Of a stretch of 64,000 nt of DNA, positions 2,994 through 61,941 are shown piece by piece. The notes under the pieces are model-generated. The model worked only from the letters and a program-made list of their open reading frames with translations. It was not told where the DNA came from and did no database searches. Where the stretch lies: positions 3,162 through 67,161 of IMG/VR virus record IMGVR_UViG_3300014205_000184. One strand, written 5' to 3'. Each line of letters starts with the position of its first letter. Positions within the stretch are counted from its first letter, which is position 1. A program made the translations under genes and the position numbers. The DNA is from a virus. Taxonomy: Duplodnaviria; Heunggongvirae; Uroviricota; Caudoviricetes.

Positions 2994-3302
2994 ATGTACG
3001 AACTAATGAGGATTAGTGAAGATGAGTTTCATGTAATTAAGTTTGACCATGGTATGTTCCCCGAGCAGGATTATAGTGTAGTAAAGAAGGGTGTGATAAT
3101 ATCGTGCAATTGCATAGCGGGAAAGATACATAAGGTGTGTAAACACGGAGAATGGGTAAAGAGCGTGTTAAAAGGAAAAGTGAATGAGTTACCTGAGGGG
3201 GTGAAGTTAGTCAGGCAAGTGGATGGGGTTAAGATACGGGATAATTTCTTAAAGAATTTATTAAAAGTAAAAGAAATGAAAAAGAGGAAGGTGAAGGTAT
3301 GA
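2994..3302 (+). CDS. Hypothetical protein
   Basis: RBS GAGGAG. 102 aa. Lys-rich C-terminus. Confidence 0.5.
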   Translation: MYELMRISEDEFHVIKFDHGMFPEQDYSVVKKGVIISCNCIAGKIHKVCKHGEWVKSVLKGKVNELPEGVKLVRQVDGVKIRDNFLKNLLKVKEMKKRKVKV

Positions 3303-6261: not shown

Positions 6262-6672
6262 ATGTGTGTCCACAAAGTATTAAGGAATAAACAGTATTAT
6301 GAAAAAGATAAGGTTTATGTTGGGTATAAAATATTGACGTATGAAAAATCAGCGTGTGAAAGAACTGGAAAATATATTACATTGTGTGCGAATAGAGTAT
6401 TGGAACCCAATAAATGGTTAAAAGCAAAACCAGCATCGAGTGATTTAGTATCACGGACATATTTGTATAGTAAAGGGTTTCATGCTTATATGACAAGAAG
6501 ACAAGCGGAGATTGAGTTTGTTAGAAGGGGGTATTGTCGTGATGTTGTTATAAAGAAGGTGTACTTAAGAGATATTGTATGCTCCGGTGAAAATATAGTA
6601 GGTGAAAAGATAATAGTAGCGAATAATATGATGGTGAAAGGTAGAATAAAAATAACAAAAAGGAGATGGTAA
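6262..6672 (+). CDS. Hypothetical protein
   Basis: 136-aa ORF coupled to the upstream stop. Confidence 0.55.
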   Translation: MCVHKVLRNKQYYEKDKVYVGYKILTYEKSACERTGKYITLCANRVLEPNKWLKAKPASSDLVSRTYLYSKGFHAYMTRRQAEIEFVRRGYCRDVVIKKVYLRDIVCSGENIVGEKIIVANNMMVKGRIKITKRRW

Positions 6673-11488: not shown

Positions 11489-11740
11489 ATGATTTTTAAT
11501 TTAAACGATGCTGTGGAGTATATGTTTGCTAATATAAAAACTAAAAGTGAATATGATAAACGTTATTTAAAAAGAAATATAGAAATCGTAAGGCATAGAT
11601 ATGGATTTTACGATGGGTATGCAAAGCCTTTAAAAAAAATTGCCAAACAATTTAGAGTATCTCCGGCAAGAGTTAGACAAGTTGAATCTGACATTTTTAA
11701 AAGGTGTAGAAGTTTTAAAGAAATTAAGGAGTTTTTATGA
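11489..11740 (+). CDS. Sigma-70 region-4-like HTH protein
   Basis: C-terminal IAKQFRVSPARVRQVESDIFKRCR matches the sigma-factor region 4.2 HTH pattern. The protein is only 83 aa. Confidence 0.4.
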   Translation: MIFNLNDAVEYMFANIKTKSEYDKRYLKRNIEIVRHRYGFYDGYAKPLKKIAKQFRVSPARVRQVESDIFKRCRSFKEIKEFL

Positions 11741-13548: not shown

Positions 13549-13890
13549 ATGTGGCCATTTAAACAGAAAATTAAAAAGATGAAGATATGGAGAGTTCAAA
13601 ATGACATGGGTGAATGTCCGTATAACTTAATTGATGAAATACTTTGCGATGGGTTTCTTTATAAACATAATATAGATAAAGAGTTTCACCCAAACCCTAT
13701 GAATGATAAAGGTATACAGAGGAATATAGAACCAAATGAAATATGTGGATTCATCAATAGGAAACAAATGTGTAAATGGTTTACACTTGAGGAGTTACAA
13801 AAGTTAAGAAAAGCTGGGTATTACCCAAAGCGTGTTGAAGTTAAGAAGATAACCGCTATTGGTGAATATCAAGTATTAGCGGAGGTATAG
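13549..13890 (+). CDS. Hypothetical protein
   Basis: 113 aa. Confidence 0.5.
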   Translation: MWPFKQKIKKMKIWRVQNDMGECPYNLIDEILCDGFLYKHNIDKEFHPNPMNDKGIQRNIEPNEICGFINRKQMCKWFTLEELQKLRKAGYYPKRVEVKKITAIGEYQVLAEV

Positions 13891-13891
13891 T

Positions 13892-14149
13892 ATGCAGAAT
13901 ATTGTAGGGTTAAAAGTTACAGCGGTGAGAGGAATAATGTCTTCAGACGACAAGAGAGGACACATATATCCACGGTTCATTCTTTTTGGTGATATGGAGA
14001 CATACATAGAACTTGAAGAACAGGACTATTATGATTTTCATGATTGTAGCTCATCTGCTAGGGATATAATAATAAAGAAAAATAAAAAGATGTGGTGGAC
14101 TATATTTAAAGATACTAAACTATACCCCGATTCAAATGTGGATATATAA
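13892..14149 (+). CDS. Hypothetical protein
   Basis: 85 aa. Confidence 0.5.
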   Translation: MQNIVGLKVTAVRGIMSSDDKRGHIYPRFILFGDMETYIELEEQDYYDFHDCSSSARDIIIKKNKKMWWTIFKDTKLYPDSNVDI

Positions 14150-14150
14150 A

Positions 14151-14342
14151 ATGAAAATACAATACGAGGCGTATTATGATTATGTTGATGGGTTACATTT
14201 TAGTGTGGGGAATGTACACTGTTGGGAAGTAGTTAGAGGTTATCGAACGGCACATCTTATAGATGGTATGTATTGTAAACATAAGACACATACTAATCTT
14301 GAAGAGGCGTTATATAGATTAAGAAATGGAGATAATAAATGA
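14151..14342 (+). CDS. Hypothetical protein
   Basis: TAAAATG coupling. 63 aa. Confidence 0.4.
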
Positions 14343-14887
14343 TAGTAACGAGCTTAGAAGTTTTAAAAATAAAGTCAAGAGATACCTCTGTTGAAGAGTG
14401 CCATAGAGAAATGATATTTGAGAGAATGGATGATGAGATAAAGAAAACTCAAGGTCGAGGTATAGGTTTATCCGCAGTACAGATTGGAGTACATAGACGA
14501 GCTTGTGCGATACGCATACCAGAGCAGAAGCGTCAAGACGGTTCTATACTACGTTCAGAGTTGATATTAGATATGATAAACCCAGTGATTTTAGAAGCGT
14601 ATGACCCTATAATATTTCAAAATGAAGGGTGTCTTAGTATGCCCGGAGTTAGTGTTGACACGGATAGATATAATCATATAGTAGCTAAGTGGTTAGATTA
14701 TAATTTAGGTGAAGAACGCACCGCTACGTTTAGTGGTATTGAGGCTGTGTGTATACAGCAGGAAATAGCTCATTGCGAAGGTAAGCTCATCACCGATTTT
14801 CGTCATAAAAAAGTTGAAAGTGTGGGGAGAAACGATGCTTGCCCGTGCGGCAGCGGGCGCAAGTATAAAAAATGTTGCCTAAAATAG
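14339..14887 (+). CDS. Peptide-deformylase-like protein with a variant metal site and a C-terminal SEC-C zinc motif
   Basis: PDF motifs [10 protein letters not shown] and EGCLSMPG are present. The third motif reads QQEIAHCEG in place of QHEIDHL. A C-terminal [13 protein letters not shown] tail resembles the SecA C-terminal SEC-C motif. Confidence 0.6.
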
Positions 14888-14902: not shown

Positions 14903-14931
14903 TTGACATTTTAATATATACATGATATTAT
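14903..14931 (+). promoter_or_regulatory. Consensus sigma-A promoter (TTGACA-N17-TATTAT with extended TG)
   Basis: TTGACA at 14903-14908, TG at 14923-14924, and TATTAT at 14926-14931. Confidence 0.55.
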
Positions 14932-14963
14932 GTTTACATAATCGTAAAGAAGAAGTATGTCTA

Positions 14964-14995
14964 ACCGCAGAAAACATCTGCGGTTATTTTGTTTT
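14964..14995 (+). terminator. Intrinsic terminator-like hairpin plus U-tract sitting between the promoter and the downstream gene
   Basis: AACCGCAG-aaaacat-CTGCGGTT is followed by ATTTTGTTTT. It is preceded by a conserved AAGAAGAAGTATGTCTAACCGCAG motif that recurs at 17581-17602. Confidence 0.5.
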
Positions 14996-15017
14996 ATAAT
15001 ACAGAAAGAGAGGAGAG

Positions 15018-15473
15018 ATGCAAGAATTATCCAGGTTTAGTGCGTATACTCATTCAGTTAAGTATAAAGTAATGAGGACCAAAGAAGATGAGTTCAAGAT
15101 TATAAAATATGAGTATGATTATGACAATGGCTATAAACCTAAGTCAGTTTATACTCTACAAAGTATAAAAAATAAATGGGGATGTAGCTGTACCGGGTAT
15201 GCGATGAGAAGTTATTGTAAGCATGAAATGTGGGTTAGAAAAATAATAGCTTCAATATCCGAAAAGACTTTATTAAGTTTACCAGGTGAAGTGTTTTATC
15301 TTAAACAAGATTGTGGAATAGAGCTGATAGATGATTTTTTAAATACGTTACTGTTAAAACATTTACGCAAAAGTGAGGTCAAAAATGAAGGTGCAGAAAC
15401 AGGACAGGTTCAAATTAGAGTACGACACAATGCCGAAGATAACACATCCACGATTTCATATAACCCCTTCTGA
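15018..15473 (+). CDS. Hypothetical protein
   Basis: RBS AGAGGAGAG. 151 aa. Confidence 0.55.
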   Translation: MQELSRFSAYTHSVKYKVMRTKEDEFKIIKYEYDYDNGYKPKSVYTLQSIKNKWGCSCTGYAMRSYCKHEMWVRKIIASISEKTLLSLPGEVFYLKQDCGIELIDDFLNTLLLKHLRKSEVKNEGAETGQVQIRVRHNAEDNTSTISYNPF

Positions 15474-15586
15474 TTTTGAGATATCATCAACGGAGCAATG
15501 TTTAATAGCGTCTGGAGTTATAGTATTCGCTATTGAAAACGTTAAACTTTCGGTAAGAAGTGTGTTTACAAAGAAAGAGGAGAATG

Positions 15587-15898
15587 ATGTTGTATAATAT
15601 ATTATGTGAGATAAACGACAAAAAATGTAATTATTGCAATGCGGTTGATGATAAGAAACGTGTTTTAAAGGTTATGAAGAAGATAAAAAAGATATTCTAC
15701 AACATGATTATACCTGACAGGAAGCCGACAAATTACGATAATGGAAAGAATATCAAAATTATGGCGTATAGAGGTGGTTATAATAACTGCCGAGATTTGG
15801 CGATAAGAAGATTCCGTAAATTTACAAAAATATCGGAAGAACAATTCACAGAACTATCGGGCAATGTCGCTAGAGTTCCAGAAAAGGTAAAGTCATGA
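15587..15898 (+). CDS. Hypothetical protein
   Basis: RBS AAAGAGGAG 5 nt upstream. 103 aa. Confidence 0.5.
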   Translation: MLYNILCEINDKKCNYCNAVDDKKRVLKVMKKIKKIFYNMIIPDRKPTNYDNGKNIKIMAYRGGYNNCRDLAIRRFRKFTKISEEQFTELSGNVARVPEKVKS

Positions 15899-16059
15899 AA
15901 AAAGAAACAATTATACTGATACTTATCATGGAACTTATAATAATATATTTTATATGGAGAGGTGTAGAGAAATACTATAATTGGTATTTTGGGTATAGAA
16001 ATCATTTTAACTATCACAAATCATTAGGTGAATGGGAGAAAAATCATGCAAGAAATTAA
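15895..16059 (+). CDS. Hypothetical small membrane protein
   Basis: ATGA coupling. Hydrophobic core TIILILIMELIIIYFIW. Confidence 0.4.
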   Translation: MKKETIILILIMELIIIYFIWRGVEKYYNWYFGYRNHFNYHKSLGEWEKNHARN

Positions 16060-16198
16060 AGCAGTAGCTATGGTGTTTGTTTTAGGAGTAGTTTTAGGAA
16101 TGTGGGTTCAACATATATTTGAGAGATATATTTTACCTGAAATAAAAAGGATAGAAGAACTGCGTAATGAAAATAAATGTAAATGTTGTGGTAAATAA
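16046..16198 (+). CDS. Hypothetical small membrane protein
   Basis: Hydrophobic core AVAMVFVLGVVLGMW. C-terminal CKCCGK. Confidence 0.4.
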   Translation: MQEIKAVAMVFVLGVVLGMWVQHIFERYILPEIKRIEELRNENKCKCCGK

Positions 16199-16201
16199 AC
16201 A

Positions 16202-16327
16202 TTACACCTCGTAGCGTTTTATCTGGTATGCAGAAAGGGCGCAAGTATACACGCTCAACTCTGACCGTAGGAGCAGTAACCAAGGAAGATAAGACAAGAG
16301 TAAAGCTCGCTAACTGCCGAGGTGTAT
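16202..16327 (+). other. Structured intergenic element closed by a 9-10 bp long-range stem
   Basis: TTACACCTCG (16202-16211) pairs with CGAGGTGTAT (16318-16327). There are internal AGCGT/ACGCT and further stems. The 150-nt gap is non-coding on both strands. Confidence 0.35.
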
Positions 16328-16350
16328 TCAAATTTAAAAGGAGAGTTAAT

Positions 16351-16557
16351 ATGAGCGATATGATAAAGATACCCAAGAAAGAGTATGTTGCGTTACGTAT
16401 GGCGCAGATAATGATTTCAAGACTTGATGCGGGCGGTGTAGATAATTGGGAATGGTACGGTGAGAGTTTAAACCCAGATGGTTACCCCGATTTAGACGCA
16501 ATGCAGGTTGAGATTGAGAAAGAAATAGAAAATTTGGATGAATTATCTCTTAATTAA
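16351..16557 (+). CDS. Hypothetical protein
   Basis: RBS AAAGGAGAG. 68 aa. Confidence 0.5.
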   Translation: MSDMIKIPKKEYVALRMAQIMISRLDAGGVDNWEWYGESLNPDGYPDLDAMQVEIEKEIENLDELSLN

Positions 16558-16568
16558 AGGAGAGCATC

Positions 16569-16850
16569 ATGCGAATAAGTAAAAAATTATATCATCACGC
16601 AAAGACTAGGCTTATTGAACGATATGGGGAGCATAGATTACCAGAAGGTAAAAAAGAGTTTGTATTTAGTTTAAGTAATAATAGGAAGATACATAAAATC
16701 AATGAAGTATACTTTATATGGAGAAAAAGCGATAAGAAAATTATTACATTCTTAACCAAAGAAAATGTTGATAATATATTAAATCACCATAGTAAAAAGG
16801 TCAACGTTAAGGAGATTTCTAATAATGAAAATGAAACTGTGCAAGCATAG
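16569..16850 (+). CDS. Hypothetical protein
   Basis: RBS AAAGGAGAG. 93 aa. Confidence 0.5.
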   Translation: MRISKKLYHHAKTRLIERYGEHRLPEGKKEFVFSLSNNRKIHKINEVYFIWRKSDKKIITFLTKENVDNILNHHSKKVNVKEISNNENETVQA

Positions 16851-16937
16851 AATAACATATTTAAATTTTTGTTTTCTTTGGGGTTGCGAGTGTAGTGGCG
16901 AAGATGATTTGTGTGGAGATAATACAGAGGTGAAGGT

Positions 16938-17159
16938 ATGAATTCAGTTTTAATACGTAACATAACCTATGAACAGTTCACAAGATGGGATAGAGAGAAT
17001 AATCCTCAGTATGATAATGAAGAATATCTTGATTATAAAGAGGTGCACTCTGGTTTAAGCTCAGCGATATGCAGTTATGGGTATAAAGAAACTATTAACG
17101 GTAGAACTTTTTGGTTAAAAAAATGTGATGTTCCAACAATTTATAGGAGGCGTATATGA
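16938..17159 (+). CDS. Hypothetical protein
   Basis: RBS GAGGTGAAGG. 73 aa. Confidence 0.5.
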   Translation: MNSVLIRNITYEQFTRWDRENNPQYDNEEYLDYKEVHSGLSSAICSYGYKETINGRTFWLKKCDVPTIYRRRI

Positions 17160-17350
17160 AAAAACAATCTAATAAACCCATGATATGTAATCTTGAAGTA
17201 TTGTTAATGCCAAATGGAGAGATTATATGTTTAGGGAAGACGTTGGGGTGGTTTAAAGAATTTAAAGAGTTTATTACAAAGAAAACAGATATATCTGGAG
17301 ACAATTCGGGTGAATCTTTTGCAGAAGAAAGTCTGCGAGGTGAGTGGTGA
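17156..17350 (+). CDS. Hypothetical protein
   Basis: ATGA coupling. 64 aa. Confidence 0.45.
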   Translation: MKKQSNKPMICNLEVLLMPNGEIICLGKTLGWFKEFKEFITKKTDISGDNSGESFAEESLRGEW

Positions 17351-17526
17351 CAGAAGCACAAAAAAAGAAGATTGATAGTATGAACCAATTTGAATTATGC
17401 TGTGCGTGGAGATTTGCAGAGTCTGGAGACCCATTATTTCAAGGTGATACAGGTGAATACTTTACTAAAGTCTTAAAAGAAAAAGGCGGGTTCACCCCTG
17501 AAATATCGAAGAGTTTGAAGTGGTGA
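17344..17526 (+). CDS. Hypothetical protein (GTG start)
   Basis: The start overlaps the upstream stop. 60 aa. Confidence 0.4.
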   Translation: MVTEAQKKKIDSMNQFELCCAWRFAESGDPLFQGDTGEYFTKVLKEKGGFTPEISKSLKW

Positions 17527-17535
17527 TTAAAGTTC

Positions 17536-17564
17536 TTTACAAAATAACATTTTCGTGATATAAT
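17536..17564 (+). promoter_or_regulatory. Sigma-A-type promoter (TTTACA-N17-TATAAT with extended TG)
   Basis: TTTACA at 17536-17541, TG at 17556-17557, and TATAAT at 17559-17564. Confidence 0.5.
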
Positions 17565-17594
17565 GTATCTATAAGTGAAAGAAGAAATATGTCT

Positions 17595-35843: not shown

Positions 35844-36517
35844 ACAAACGTCAGATACTTAGACAAGTTTTAAAAAAAAGATGTAAAAAGTGTCATTGTA
35901 TAATTGATGATAGAAATAAACGTGGTTTCTGTGTCAAACATACAAATTTTTCAAGAGAGAGAAATTCTTTTTGGGGGATGAAGCATAGTAAGAAAACAAA
36001 AAATATAATGAAGCAACATCATCAAGATTTTCACGGAGAAAACAATCCTTTTTTTGGTAAAAAGCATACTAGAAAATCTATTAATAAAATGCGAAAATCA
36101 CATAAGAGTAACTGGTTAAAGTATGATACTAAAAAAAGAAATAAAATATTATATAATCTTATTACATCTAGTAGAAAAACAAGAGGAACTAAAATAGAAA
36201 AAATTATATCAAATTTTTTAAATATTTTGAATATAAAACATAGAAGACATGTACAAATGGGATTATATAACGTTGATTTTTTAGTAGATAAAAAATTTAT
36301 TATAGAATGTTTTGGTGATTATTGGCATTTTAATCCAAAATTTTTCAATTCAAATAATAAAATTAAAAATAAGCATAAGAAAGATAAGATTAAAAAAGAA
36401 ATACTAATAAAGAAAGGGTATAAATATCTTGTGTTATGGGAATATGATATTAATAATCAATTTGATGTCGTAAGAAATAAAATAAGGAGTTTTTTAAATG
36501 TTAAAAATACTATCTGA
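35840..36517 (+). CDS. Free-standing homing-endonuclease-like protein (NUMOD3 DNA-binding repeats plus a Vsr/DUF559-like PD-(D/E)xK nuclease)
   Basis: Carries FWGMKHSKKTKNIMKQ and FFGKKHTRKSINKMRKS (NUMOD3). C-terminal LYNVDFLVDKKFIIECFGDYWH is the DUF559/Vsr-type D...E.K core. Confidence 0.55.
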   Translation: MNKRQILRQVLKKRCKKCHCIIDDRNKRGFCVKHTNFSRERNSFWGMKHSKKTKNIMKQHHQDFHGENNPFFGKKHTRKSINKMRKSHKSNWLKYDTKKRNKILYNLITSSRKTRGTKIEKIISNFLNILNIKHRRHVQMGLYNVDFLVDKKFIIECFGDYWHFNPKFFNSNNKIKNKHKKDKIKKEILIKKGYKYLVLWEYDINNQFDVVRNKIRSFLNVKNTI

Positions 36518-37805
36518 GAATCTAAGAATCCCGATAAAATTATGGATAAGCAATATAGAAAACGGAGCCTTGGAACAAGCATGTAACTCTGCAAATCTAC
36601 CTTTTGCATTTCATCATATTTCAATAATGCCCGACGCTCATCAGGGTTATGGCGTTCCAATTGGGTCAGTTTTAGCGACAGATAGAGTAGTAATTCCAAA
36701 CGCAGTGGGTGTGGATATAGGTTGTGGAATGTGTGCAGTAAAGACTTCACTAAAAGCTGAACAACTAGATAAAGAAACTTTAAAGACAATAATGGGCAAG
36801 ATACGAGAAGCGATACCCGTAGGTAACGATAAAGATGGTAGACACGCTAAGAAACAAGATGAAAGTTTAATGCCTGTTCCTAAAAATTTAGGAGAATATA
36901 TTACAACAGAAAATCTCTTAATAAGAGATTATCCGATAGTATCTCAACAGTACGAATCAGCATTAACACAAATTGGCACTCTGGGCGGCGGCAATCATTT
37001 CATCGAAATACAAAAAGATAAAGAAGATAATGTTTGGATAATGATACATTCAGGGAGTAGAAATTTAGGGCATAAAGTAGCAACGCATTATAATGAGTTA
37101 GCAATTAAATTAAATCGTATGTGGTGTTCATGTGTTCCTACGGAATGGGAATTAGCATTTCTTCCAATAGAAACAGAAGAAGCTAAAAGTTATATGCGTG
37201 AAATGCAATATTGTGTGGATTTTGCGTTAGCTAATAGAAGTTTAATGATGGATAGAATAATAGATGTATTTGAACAAATTTTAATAGGTTTTGGACAAAA
37301 TCAAGTCCAAAATATTATATTTTCTAAAGCTATAAACATAGCTCATAACTACGCATCTTGGGAAAATCATTTTGGGAAGAATGTAATTGTTCATCGTAAG
37401 GGTGCTACATTAGCAAGAAAAGATACTATAGGTATTATACCGGGCTCACAAGGCACGAAGAGCTATATCGTTAAAGGTCTAGGTAATGTCGATAGTTTTA
37501 TGTCGTGTAGTCATGGTGCAGGACGTCTTATGAGCAGAACAAAAGCATGTAATGAATTAAATTTAGAAGATGAGATAAAGAAGCTTGACGACCAAGGAAT
37601 TGTTCATGGTATAAGAACTAAGAATGATTTAGATGAGGCGAGTGGTGCGTATAAAGATATAGGCGAAGTAATGAATAACCAAGTTGATTTAGTGGAAATA
37701 ATAACTGAGCTTCAACCATTAGCTGTTATTAAAGCTACAACTAATAAGGTTACCACGAAGGATGTTTTAGAATATTCAAAATCTATAAGTAATTTTTTAA
37801 AATAA
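36498..37805 (+). CDS. rtcB: RtcB RNA 3'-phosphate/2',3'-cyclic phosphate ligase
   Basis: RBS AAGGAG. Carries MPDAHQGYGVPIGSV, VGVDIGCGMCAV, and GTLGGGNHFIEIQ...IHSGSRNLGHKVATHY. Confidence 0.75.
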   Translation: MLKILSENLRIPIKLWISNIENGALEQACNSANLPFAFHHISIMPDAHQGYGVPIGSVLATDRVVIPNAVGVDIGCGMCAVKTSLKAEQLDKETLKTIMGKIREAIPVGNDKDGRHAKKQDESLMPVPKNLGEYITTENLLIRDYPIVSQQYESALTQIGTLGGGNHFIEIQKDKEDNVWIMIHSGSRNLGHKVATHYNELAIKLNRMWCSCVPTEWELAFLPIETEEAKSYMREMQYCVDFALANRSLMMDRIIDVFEQILIGFGQNQVQNIIFSKAINIAHNYASWENHFGKNVIVHRKGATLARKDTIGIIPGSQGTKSYIVKGLGNVDSFMSCSHGAGRLMSRTKACNELNLEDEIKKLDDQGIVHGIRTKNDLDEASGAYKDIGEVMNNQVDLVEIITELQPLAVIKATTNKVTTKDVLEYSKSISNFLK

Positions 37806-47143: not shown

Positions 47144-47180
47144 GTATTTACAATAATCGCAGAAAGGATAAATATTATTT

Positions 47181-61649: not shown

Positions 61650-61826
61650 ATGACCTCACCACATATCGTATGCAGAGCTTGCGGAGCAACAGCAATATGT
61701 TGTTGTCTTATTATAGAAGATGAAGTGTGCGGATATATCTGTCCATATACATGCTTACAGTGTGGCTATGTTGAGTTGAGAGAAGAAGCTCTTGAGCGTA
61801 AAAAAAATAGATTAAAAACAACTTGA
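61650..61826 (+). CDS. Hypothetical small Cys-rich protein
   Basis: Carries CRACG...CCC...CGYICPYTCLQCGY. It is the last gene of the + strand array. Confidence 0.4.
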   Translation: MTSPHIVCRACGATAICCCLIIEDEVCGYICPYTCLQCGYVELREEALERKKNRLKTT

Positions 61827-61851
61827 CAAAGCATCAATTATGTGATATACT
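61823..61851 (+). promoter_or_regulatory. Consensus sigma-A promoter (TTGACA-N17-TATACT with extended TG) directly upstream of a terminator
   Basis: TTGACA at 61823-61828, TG at 61843-61844, and TATACT at 61846-61851. Confidence 0.5.
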
Positions 61852-61902
61852 ATATGTGAGTAAGAAAATCACAAGTCTTACTTTAGTCTCCTTTCTGTGT
61901 GA

Positions 61903-61941
61903 GCGGGCGCCGTACTCCTTTCCGGCGTCCGCTATTTTTTT
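61903..61941 (+). terminator. Rho-independent terminator at the convergence point of the + and - gene blocks
   Basis: GC-rich hairpin GCGGGCGCCG-tactcctttc-CGGCGTCCGC followed by TATTTTTTT. Confidence 0.6.

Follow-up and report, generated by a model that had tools for sequence, protein, structure and literature searches.

A conserved box-and-hairpin leader element behind strong promoters of an uncultured phage, and its possible role as a transcriptional gate

Introduction

Why should a strong promoter be followed almost at once, and before the first gene that it could serve, by a hairpin with the look of a terminator? This arrangement occurs in a stretch of DNA of 64 kb from a virus of the Caudoviricetes (positions 3,162 to 67,161 of IMG/VR record IMGVR_UViG_3300014205_000184), which we call the window, whose position 1 is its first letter, and on which all coordinates of the element refer to the plus strand. 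An earlier note on this DNA had described, between a ‘perfect sigma-A promoter’ and gene 15018, a leader element made up of a conserved motif and a terminator hairpin, with a near-identical copy ahead of a ubiquitin-like (Ubl) operon. Judged from the way its sequence and predicted fold are kept in a third, orthologous copy from a related phage, this element is a real leader RNA signal, and we suggest, with a confidence somewhat short of even (about 45%), that it acts in cis as a gate on transcription, that is as an attenuator or pause site with its own recognition box.

The window phage is uncultured and large, with a G+C content of ~33%, a purine-rich sense strand and nearly all of its window genes on the plus strand. 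Its sequence recurs on a 130,247-nucleotide (nt) ENA contig, on a 78-kb Logan contig and on JGI fragments, but these other assemblies are 99.6-100% identical and so add no variation. We found no near-DNA relative among 50,697 deposited phage genomes (INPHARED), where the 465-amino-acid (aa) and JAB-like proteins of the Ubl operon were likewise without a match, and homolog searches with the 465-aa protein and with the 151-aa product of gene 15018 returned only the query proteins themselves.

Two copies of the element in the window

Both sequences quoted in the earlier note were found where it had placed them, on the plus strand. The degenerate 25-nt motif AAAGAAGAARTATGTCTARCCGCAG has exactly two matches in the window (14946-14970 and 17578-17602) against a chance expectation of 0 (0 matches in 100 dinucleotide shuffles), and no third site appears in the window when up to 3 mismatches are allowed. 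The 15-mer singled out in the note also occurs only twice in the window, and 13 kb of extra flank beyond it hold no further copies of the element. The parts of the two copies are as follows.

14903..14931, plus strand: promoter P1; TTGACA at 14903-14908, 17-nt spacer, TG, TATTAT at 14926-14931; predicted start at ~14936-14938
14946..14963, plus strand: box of copy 1, AAAGAAGAAGTATGTCTA; 16-nt core at 14948-14963; AUG at 14957-14959
14962..14986, plus strand: hairpin 1 of copy 1; stem TAACCGCAG/CTGCGGTTA of 9 base pairs (bp), 7-nt loop AAAACAT, a 10th pair possible
14987..14995, plus strand: U-tract of copy 1, TTTTGTTTT; abuts the stem directly and carries TTNTTT (as TTATTT and TTGTTT)
17536..17564, plus strand: promoter P2; TTTACA at 17536-17541, 17-nt spacer, TG, TATAAT at 17559-17564; predicted start at ~17571
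17578..17595, plus strand: box of copy 2, AAAGAAGAAATATGTCTA; 16-nt core at 17580-17595; AUG at 17589-17591
17594..17617, plus strand: hairpin 1 of copy 2; stem TAGCCGCAG/CTGCGGCTA, 9 bp, 6-nt loop AATTTA
17620..17626, plus strand: U-rich run of copy 2, TTGTTTT, which includes a TTNTTT motif; AA lies between it and the stem

The order of parts described earlier (promoter, conserved motif, hairpin, T-run, gene) is thus correct, and a TG-extended promoter of the sigma-A type is indeed in place, although it is near-consensus rather than perfect. Strong promoters of the type TTGACA-17-TGATATAMT number ~14 in the window plus 8.8 kb of left flank; P1 is one of them, and the box is found at 2 of these ~14. 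A -10-like hexamer (CATAAT at P1, TATAAG at P2) follows 5 nt after the -10 element, and the same is seen at P4, which has no hairpin. An upstream AGTGGNNANTAAA element common to P1, P2 and P3 was dropped from consideration, as it was not enriched.

In the predicted folds the hairpin of copy 1 reaches -14.2 to -15 kcal/mol (z = -3.5 against shuffles) and that of copy 2 -15.3 kcal/mol (z = -4.6), while the box is single-stranded in both. The two window stems open with U-A and A-U pairs, and so have weak pairs at the stem base; the loop of copy 2 is 1 nt shorter than that of copy 1, and of these two copies only copy 1 has its U-run set directly against the stem. Similarity between the copies extends over a paralogous promoter-plus-leader cassette of ~110 nt, and is distributed in blocks: identity is 15/16 in the box, 8/9 in each stem arm and 7/9 in the U-rich tail, as against 39-57% in the upstream flank, promoter spacer, +1 region, loop and downstream flank. 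One pair of the stem has undergone a compensatory change from A-U to G-C, in keeping with the co-variation that the earlier note had reported.

Compared by eye, the leader of P1 resembles a P4-/P3-type leader (...TTTACATAATCG followed by CAGAAAG...) with an insert of ~57 nt that comprises the box, hairpin and U-tract (14932-14945 and 14996-15008 set against 47144-47165 and 23226-23245). This ~57-nt segment is bordered by ATAATCG and ATAATAC, and the comparison suggests that the module may have moved as a unit.

A third copy with an identical box and an unrelated stem

Because the adjoining genes are orphans and the other assemblies are near-identical, the comparison had to use a more distant relative. 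Through the peptide deformylase (Pdf) encoded next to copy 1 we found a homolog, 52% identical, encoded on a contig of 105,537 nt that derives from the same JGI sample. This contig, also present in IMG/VR and here called L056, is syntenic with the window and whose Ubl-operon proteins are 35-53% identical to those of the window phage. Its Ubl leader carries the element in the following form (L056 coordinates).

13564-13592: Ubl promoter, TTGACT-17-TGATATACT
Between promoter and box: spacer of 14 nt, unrelated in sequence
13607-13622: box AGAAGAAATATGTCTA, 16 nt, then TAT
13626-13651: hairpin GCTACTCAT / loop TATCGGTT / ATGAGTAGC, perfect 9 bp, then GAATTTATTTGT

The L056 box is 100% identical to the core of window copy 2 (the core of copy 1 differs at one R position), and it forms the longest identical run in the aligned Ubl leaders, exceeding the -10, ribosome-binding-site and start-codon blocks. 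The distance at which the box follows the -10 element is much the same in the three copies, at 14-16 nt. The 9-bp stem of L056, by contrast, shares essentially no sequence with the window stems and yet is perfect, where the chance rate of a perfect 9-bp hairpin after a given position in these genomes is ~0.001. Downstream of it come GAA and then TTTATTTGT. Loop lengths are 6, 7 and 8 nt over the three copies and the distance from box to hairpin varies by 5 nt. We read the covariation directly from the sequences; MAFFT did not put the unrelated stems in register. The L056 Ubl leader also has a second hairpin, at a place equivalent to that of the second hairpin of the window Ubl leader.

An identical box in front of a rewritten yet perfect stem implies that what has been conserved is the sequence in the box and the structure alone in the hairpin, with neither conserved in the loop. 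The structural role first proposed from the two window copies is therefore much more strongly founded, with a third orthologous copy that has a wholly different perfect 9-bp stem behind the same box. The earlier note had named as grounds for refutation a motif present just two times, with local duplication as the sole origin of the pair; there are indeed two copies only in the window, but the blockwise and cross-phage conservation excludes a neutral local duplication. Moreover, the differing loop lengths, which change the spacing of the half-sites, together with the unrelated stems argue against a sequence-specific palindromic operator in the DNA.

Wider searches added no members. Pattern scans of IMG/VR returned L056 as the one related contig, the other matches lacking the promoter and hairpin context; a scan of JGI metagenome contigs gave chance matches only, and 185,579 species genomes (GTDB) scanned with the motif plus hairpin gave 10 chance matches and no arrays. 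The box is absent from two more distant Pdf-carrying contigs, L058 and L155. A covariance model derived from the two window copies clung too closely to their sequence: it gave the L056 copy only 14.5 bits, level with real gene starts, and a search of 140 kb with it found no extra copies. We set aside what might be a diverged box (6509) in the leader of a SpoVG-like gene of L056, since the enrichment of its short core, AARTATGTC, is not significant and it stands in a different context.

Terminator or pause

To grade the hairpins we used a d’Aubenton-Carafa-type score, d, built from the energy of the hairpin per nucleotide and a weighted U-tract. On this scale copy 1, at d = +19.7, ranks first among the ten hairpins scored in both phages, and it was also picked up by a terminator scan; it scores as a canonical intrinsic terminator and, by sequence rules, should terminate. 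Copy 2 scores -34 (-18 with an extended stem) and the L056 leader hairpin -57 (-22 with an extended stem), so that neither is a terminator by the classical criterion, and the reason in both is the 2-3 purines between stem and U-run. The ‘terminator hairpin’ of the earlier note therefore holds for copy 1 and fails for copy 2 and for the L056 ortholog. Stem stability is alike in the three (perfect 9 bp, -12.1 to -15.3 kcal/mol), and all have TTNTTT at or soon after the hairpin: TTATTT and TTGTTT in copy 1, TTGTTT in copy 2 and TTATTT in L056.

In Bacillus subtilis TTNTTT in the non-template strand is a NusG-dependent pause signal, NusG/NusA-dependent terminators have weak A-U or G-U closing pairs and interrupted U-tracts, and moving the 3' end 2 nt further from the hairpin turned a terminator into a long-lived pause (PMC8060035). 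The sequence features that mark such a terminator or pause site in B. subtilis (TTNTTT, weak pairs at the stem base, here in the window copies, and an interrupted U-tract) are all found in the element. By this analogy the hairpins of copy 2 and L056 look like weak factor-dependent terminators or pause hairpins. A bidirectional terminator was rejected, as the U-rich stretch on the minus strand is separated from the stem by GACAUA.

Terminators are rare in this phage: the scan returned only four convincing intrinsic ones on the plus strand of the 64 kb, at 14962 (copy 1), 17594 (copy 2), 17991 and 61902. Three of the four fall within 3.1 kb (14.9-18.0 kb), and so tight a cluster suggests that gating here is deliberate. 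The copy 1 hairpin is also the first terminator-like site, after ~13.8 kb of small early genes, past the following promoter.

~1143-1170, rightward: putative early promoter, downstream of a 900-nt non-coding divergent region (329-1230)

A related layout without the box is seen in L056 at 6312-6400, where a strong promoter is followed at ~+17 by a canonical terminator hairpin (TCGAGA...TCTCGA then TTTTTGTTT, d = +7), the whole preceding the long structured leader of the SpoVG-like gene. The promoter-then-terminator layout thus recurs in this phage group.

Genes behind the element

The genes and further signals downstream of the two window copies are these.

15018..15473, plus strand: gene 15018, 151 aa, an orphan with a weak zinc-finger-like match; first gene after copy 1
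17629-17659, plus strand: hairpin 2 of the Ubl leader, GAACGGAT...ATCCGTTC
17663-17713, plus strand: hairpin 3 of the Ubl leader, AGTTATAAAGA...TCTTTATAATT; encloses a 3-codon mini open reading frame (mini-ORF) with a strong Shine-Dalgarno sequence
17755..17964, plus strand: Ubl gene, ThiS-like (Pfam); first gene of the operon behind copy 2
17991..18029, plus strand: terminator after the Ubl gene, 19-bp stem and TTTTT; -25.6 kcal/mol, d = +16.9; 23 nt before the next gene

The U-tract of copy 1 and the start codon of gene 15018 are just 22 nt apart, so that this gene needs read-through of hairpin 1 to be expressed. It heads a block of ~10 small orphan genes that runs to 17526 and includes a T7 gp5.9-like RecBCD inhibitor at 16228-16557. 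The configuration behind copy 2, said earlier to be the same, is so as far as promoter and element go, but the Ubl start codon at 17755 lies 128 nt further on, past two more hairpins. The Ubl leader as a whole (17571-17715) folds at -38.1 kcal/mol (z = -4.1). Between copy 2 and the Ubl gene there is no strong promoter, the best candidate matching at 9/12 positions. After the Ubl gene come the 465-aa protein, a JAB-like protein of 344 aa and a ThiF-like (E1) protein of 220 aa (Pfam), and because the strong terminator stands directly after the Ubl gene these enzyme genes also depend on read-through. L056 has a strong terminator at the same place (14036-14071), as if in both phages it set the ratio of Ubl to enzymes.

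These genes (17755-21182, plus strand) make up a phage-encoded ubiquitin-like conjugation set, with a ThiS-like Ubl, the 465-aa orphan, the JAB-like protein and the ThiF-like E1. The set is conserved in L056, where there is a second JAB-like/ThiF-like pair too (L056 13801-17313 and 19041-20400). The mini-ORF within hairpin 3 of the window leader is GGAGATGATGATATAG (17677-17695), and a start-stop ORF with a strong Shine-Dalgarno sequence, AAGGAGGTTTATTATGTGA, is found in the SpoVG-gene leader of L056 (6413-6432).

Searches for a reader of the box

Rfam 15 gave 0 matches at or above the gathering threshold in the whole window, and the sub-threshold chance matches in the two window leaders and the L056 leader had none in common; with no Rfam match and so short a leader, a riboswitch or other known RNA family was rejected. 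In contrast to what a CRISPR-repeat mimic would lead one to expect, stem and loop sequences differ between the copies, and the genome scan had shown no arrays. Two promoter-like readings of the box were also discarded: a SPO1-type phage sigma promoter (AGGAGA-N17-TTTNTTT), for which the spacing here is ~33 nt, and an antisense promoter on the reverse complement (TAGACA), which lacks a conserved -10.

Pfam and PHROG scans of ~90 window proteins found no N-, Q-, NusG/LoaP-, RegA- or BglG-type protein. The sole transcription-related match in these scans was an 83-aa sigma region-4-like protein at 11489-11740 (plus strand). This protein (...IAKQFRVSPARVRQVESDIFKRCR...) resembles an isolated helix-turn-helix of sigma-70 region 4 (PHROG 351, sigma factor, E = 2.6e-4; Pfam Sigma70_r4 weak), and could be a competitor for the -35 element or the beta-flap in host takeover.

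A possible gate on transcription

What is directly seen is the sequence, the predicted structure, the pattern of conservation and the absence of strong alternative promoters; from these we infer the start sites, the termination or pausing, and the existence of a factor that reads the box. The module would consist of the 16-nt single-stranded box AGAAGAARUAUGUCUA (at ~+9 to +25), a 9-bp hairpin of arbitrary sequence and a U-rich TTNTTT tract, and as a gate would sit ~45-60 nt after the start of strong host-type (sigma-A-like) promoters. Polymerases from P1 and P2, and at copy 1 also those making a long upstream early transcript, would reach hairpin 1 and TTNTTT, where a fraction would terminate at copy 1 and where at copy 2 and in L056 they would pause, or terminate weakly and in a factor-dependent manner. 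The 15018-17526 block and the Ubl operon would then be made only by polymerases that read through, and what sets the level of read-through would probably be a factor that acts in trans by recognising the box, either a protein of phage or host or possibly the ribosome. The copy 1 hairpin would in addition end the long rightward early operon coming from upstream, and a leader RNA of ~55-58 nt would be released as a by-product.

Several points weigh against this gate. Termination is well supported in one of the three copies, the other two falling short by the classical score, and pausing is argued by analogy with B. subtilis rules. With three copies from two phages the statistics are thin, and the protein scans offered no candidate to read the box. 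A conserved seed and a covarying stem would suit a small RNA equally, and the box may be read as DNA. A bolder extension, that the module is the recruitment or pause site of an unrecognised antitermination or elongation-control system of Firmicute-type phages, in which a dedicated factor reads the box and times the anti-defence block and the Ubl operon (or, what would be equally new, that it is a seed-conserved small RNA with a host target), we regard as unlikely.

Alternative readings

Of the three options in the earlier note (an abundant short RNA, a switch by antitermination or attenuation, a site for processing or protein binding), which sequence alone does not tell apart, we rank attenuation or pausing with a recognition box first and a small RNA acting in trans second, the latter being rather unlikely in our estimate. 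Such an RNA of ~55-60 nt, derived from the untranslated 5' region (5'UTR) or sharing an operon-end terminator, would use the box as a seed for a host or late-phage target and the hairpin and U tail as terminator and stabiliser, with any downstream effect secondary. A conserved seed with a covarying terminator stem is typical of small-RNA families, the box is predicted to lie unpaired close to the 5' end, and a clear promoter-to-terminator unit that stands alone, P5 (61823-61941), is found in this phage, with anti-Shine-Dalgarno-like C/U-rich motifs and no gene downstream. Short RNAs made by premature termination right after the start are documented in phages (201phi2-1, PMC11512511), and a by-product of antitermination can become a regulatory small RNA (StxS, PMC7547250). 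On the other hand, we found no antisense partner for the box on any sense strand of ~77 kb of this phage (window plus 13 kb of flanks), the near-matches being box-like start regions; two of the three copies are without a good terminator to fix the 3' end; and each copy leads into genes that lack a strong promoter of their own, a setting for which a free-standing small-RNA gene would have no need. The near-matches point to another reading, which we consider improbable: the box would be a weakened translation initiation region, and a ribosome at its AUG, 2-7 nt before the hairpin, would melt hairpin 1 to allow read-through or would protect the 5' end in the manner of a STAB-SD or polypurine stabiliser. 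The near-matches are real start regions on the same strand (AAAGGAGAAGTATG of gene 10211, TAAGGAGAAATATG of gene 57735), from which the box differs by one base (GAAG in place of GGAG); the conserved block spans ~-9 to +7 around the AUG, the footprint of an initiation region; and the covariance model of the two copies ranks real start regions as its next-best matches. Pairing with the 3' end of 16S rRNA is nevertheless weak, at -2.2 kcal/mol for copy 1 (no better than at a random AUG) and -5.8 kcal/mol for copy 2, where the median of 87 real genes is -8.9, short of the strong complementarity expected of a STAB-SD or polypurine stabiliser, and the GAAG ‘defect’ is kept in all three copies. The mini-ORFs that open at the box AUG (27, 9 and 22 codons) have peptides alike in Met-Ser only, so that a conserved leader peptide was rejected. 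A leader-peptide attenuator fits no better, the Shine-Dalgarno sequence being weak, with only ~25 nt of leader ahead of the hairpin, no alternative pairing predicted and no room for an antiterminator structure, and hairpin folding should be far faster than ribosome loading on ~40 nt of nascent RNA. It is the weak 16S pairing and the unconserved peptides that lead us to rate ribosome-based models low.

Could the box instead be read in double-stranded DNA, as an operator at +9 to +25 through which a transcription factor of phage or host would repress these promoters or control them in some other way, with the hairpin an independent terminator or pause? The near-fixed distance from the -10 element (14-16 nt in all three copies), set beside a distance to the hairpin that varies by 5 nt, would fit such an operator, as would the -35-like TAGACA in the reverse complement of the box and the sigma region-4-like protein that the phage encodes. 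The box is, however, neither a palindrome nor a clear direct repeat, only 2 of the ~14 similar promoters have it, no DNA-binding regulator can be assigned to it, and its constant company of hairpin and U-run suggests one RNA unit; we hold an operator to be quite improbable. Least probable of the readings considered here is a processing site or 5' protective hairpin, in which an RNase Y-type cut in the single-stranded A/U-rich box, guided by the hairpin, would release a stable hairpin-capped downstream mRNA from long early transcripts. RNase Y cleavage in the sae mRNA of Staphylococcus aureus does depend on a downstream hairpin, each copy has a single-stranded, purine- and AU-rich box set directly 5' of a stable hairpin, and the copy 1 module stands between two gene blocks of a long polycistronic unit. 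With a strong promoter 15 nt upstream of each box, however, there is no need to make a 5' end there, the exact conservation of 16 nt exceeds what known RNase Y or RNase E sites require, and the conserved U-run is left unexplained.

What the gate would mean

Should the gate work as proposed, it would show how a large, uncultured orphan phage divides a run of early promoters of host type into units that differ in timing or dose, with no N-, Q- or sigma-type switch to be recognised, and the element would be the control point of both the small-gene block that contains the RecBCD inhibitor and the phage ubiquitin-like conjugation operon. The exact 16-nt box would moreover provide a handle, as pull-down bait or as a target for reporter mutations, for a new elongation or termination factor or for the target of a small RNA. 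If it is a leaky terminator and no more, it would be ordinary transcription punctuation.

Other features of the two phages

The stand-alone P5 unit (61823-61941, plus strand) has a promoter TTGACA-17-TGATATACT, a predicted RNA of ~85 nt and no downstream plus-strand gene. Its RNA would begin with a 5' hairpin GUAAGA...UCUUAC, followed by a single-stranded UUUAGUCUCCUUUCUGUGUG that mimics the anti-Shine-Dalgarno sequence, and end in a strong terminator at 61902-61933, with CUCCUUUCC likewise present in its loop. Over 11 nt the sequence is a perfect complement of CACACAGAAAG, which stands where the P3 leader begins (~23229-23239). This RNA is a candidate small RNA of the phage that would act in trans on ribosome-binding regions.

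Just upstream of copy 1, at 14339-14887 (plus strand), lies the peptide deformylase, which has a C-terminal SEC-C zinc motif; >800 metagenome homologs keep this layout, many of them on phage-like contigs. Near 36498-37805 there is an RNA-repair gene set with RtcB, an RNA ligase, a CCA-adding/poly(A) polymerase-like enzyme and RlaP, and together with the gp5.9-like inhibitor it suggests counter-defence against host systems that cleave tRNA or other RNA.

The 900-nt non-coding region at 329-1230 is unusually C-rich on the plus strand, lies between leftward and rightward early promoter clusters and contains short tandem repeats of gtatcaagtatcaagtatcaagtac plus a repeated gagacacgagtatc; it may be a genome end, an origin or a regulatory region. 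To the left of the window (L041 7313-8241, minus strand, 0.5-1.5 kb from window position 1) three leftward early promoters have in common a conserved GTTCACCA box that precedes the -35 element by 6-7 nt and may be an activator, repressor or UP-type element.

Comparison with known systems

In function the element resembles leader attenuators and the NusA/NusG-dependent terminators of B. subtilis (PMC8060035), with which it shares a hairpin and U-rich tract in a 5' leader, the weak A-U stem base (in the window copies) and TTNTTT in an interrupted U-tract. As an intrinsic terminator copy 1 passes the classical score while copy 2 and L056, with their 2-3 purines before the U-run, do not, and ordinary terminators lack the 16-nt sequence-specific box that here precedes the hairpin.

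Similar to the lambdoid PR'-tR'/Q and nut/N systems, a strong constitutive promoter is followed by a close terminator that must be read through for downstream expression, and similar to lambda boxA/boxB a linear box is joined to a hairpin near the promoter. However, the box is unlike boxA, and the 9-bp stems with A/U-rich loops of 6-8 nt differ from the 5-bp stem and GNRA-like pentaloop of boxB. Our scans of the ~90 window proteins detected no N or Q homolog. In further contrast to the lambdoid phages, the element has two tandem sites in the early region of a Firmicute-type, virulent-looking phage, and the hairpin itself would be the terminator or pause signal. The AARTAT of the box fits the AANNAT pattern of the lambda pause element, a resemblance only. 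Lambdoid antitermination can also yield a short leader RNA by-product that becomes a small RNA (StxS, PMC7547250), as might the ~55-58-nt RNA predicted from the copy 1 sequence.

Among Gram-positive leaders, the LoaP-dependent dfn leader of Bacillus velezensis (PMC12691694) likewise has a small essential hairpin with important sequence just upstream, a pause, a NusA-dependent intrinsic terminator and further in-operon terminators to be read through, for which the terminator after the Ubl gene would be the counterpart here. The LoaP hairpin is of the UNCG type, unlike the loops of the three copies (AAAACAU, AAUUUA and UAUCGGUU); neither a NusG paralog nor a KOW-family protein was found among the phage proteins scanned with Pfam and PHROG; and in dfn, unlike the element, the terminator is separate from the recognition hairpin.

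In position, the element recalls the 5'UTR-derived short RNAs that ONT-cappable-seq has revealed in 201phi2-1, phiKZ and other phages, each defined by a start site, a termination site <250 nt on and an enriched short transcript, with termination right after the start and before a phage gene (PMC11512511). One of them, sRNA005 before the phiKZ gp182 homologs, keeps its position and fold between related phages (PMC11512511). Those cases come from RNA data on Pseudomonas jumbo phages and have no sequence in common with the element, which is a prediction from sequence. Taken together, these comparisons place the element as a three-member leader motif, new in its sequence form and of a known regulatory kind, in an orphan phage lineage.

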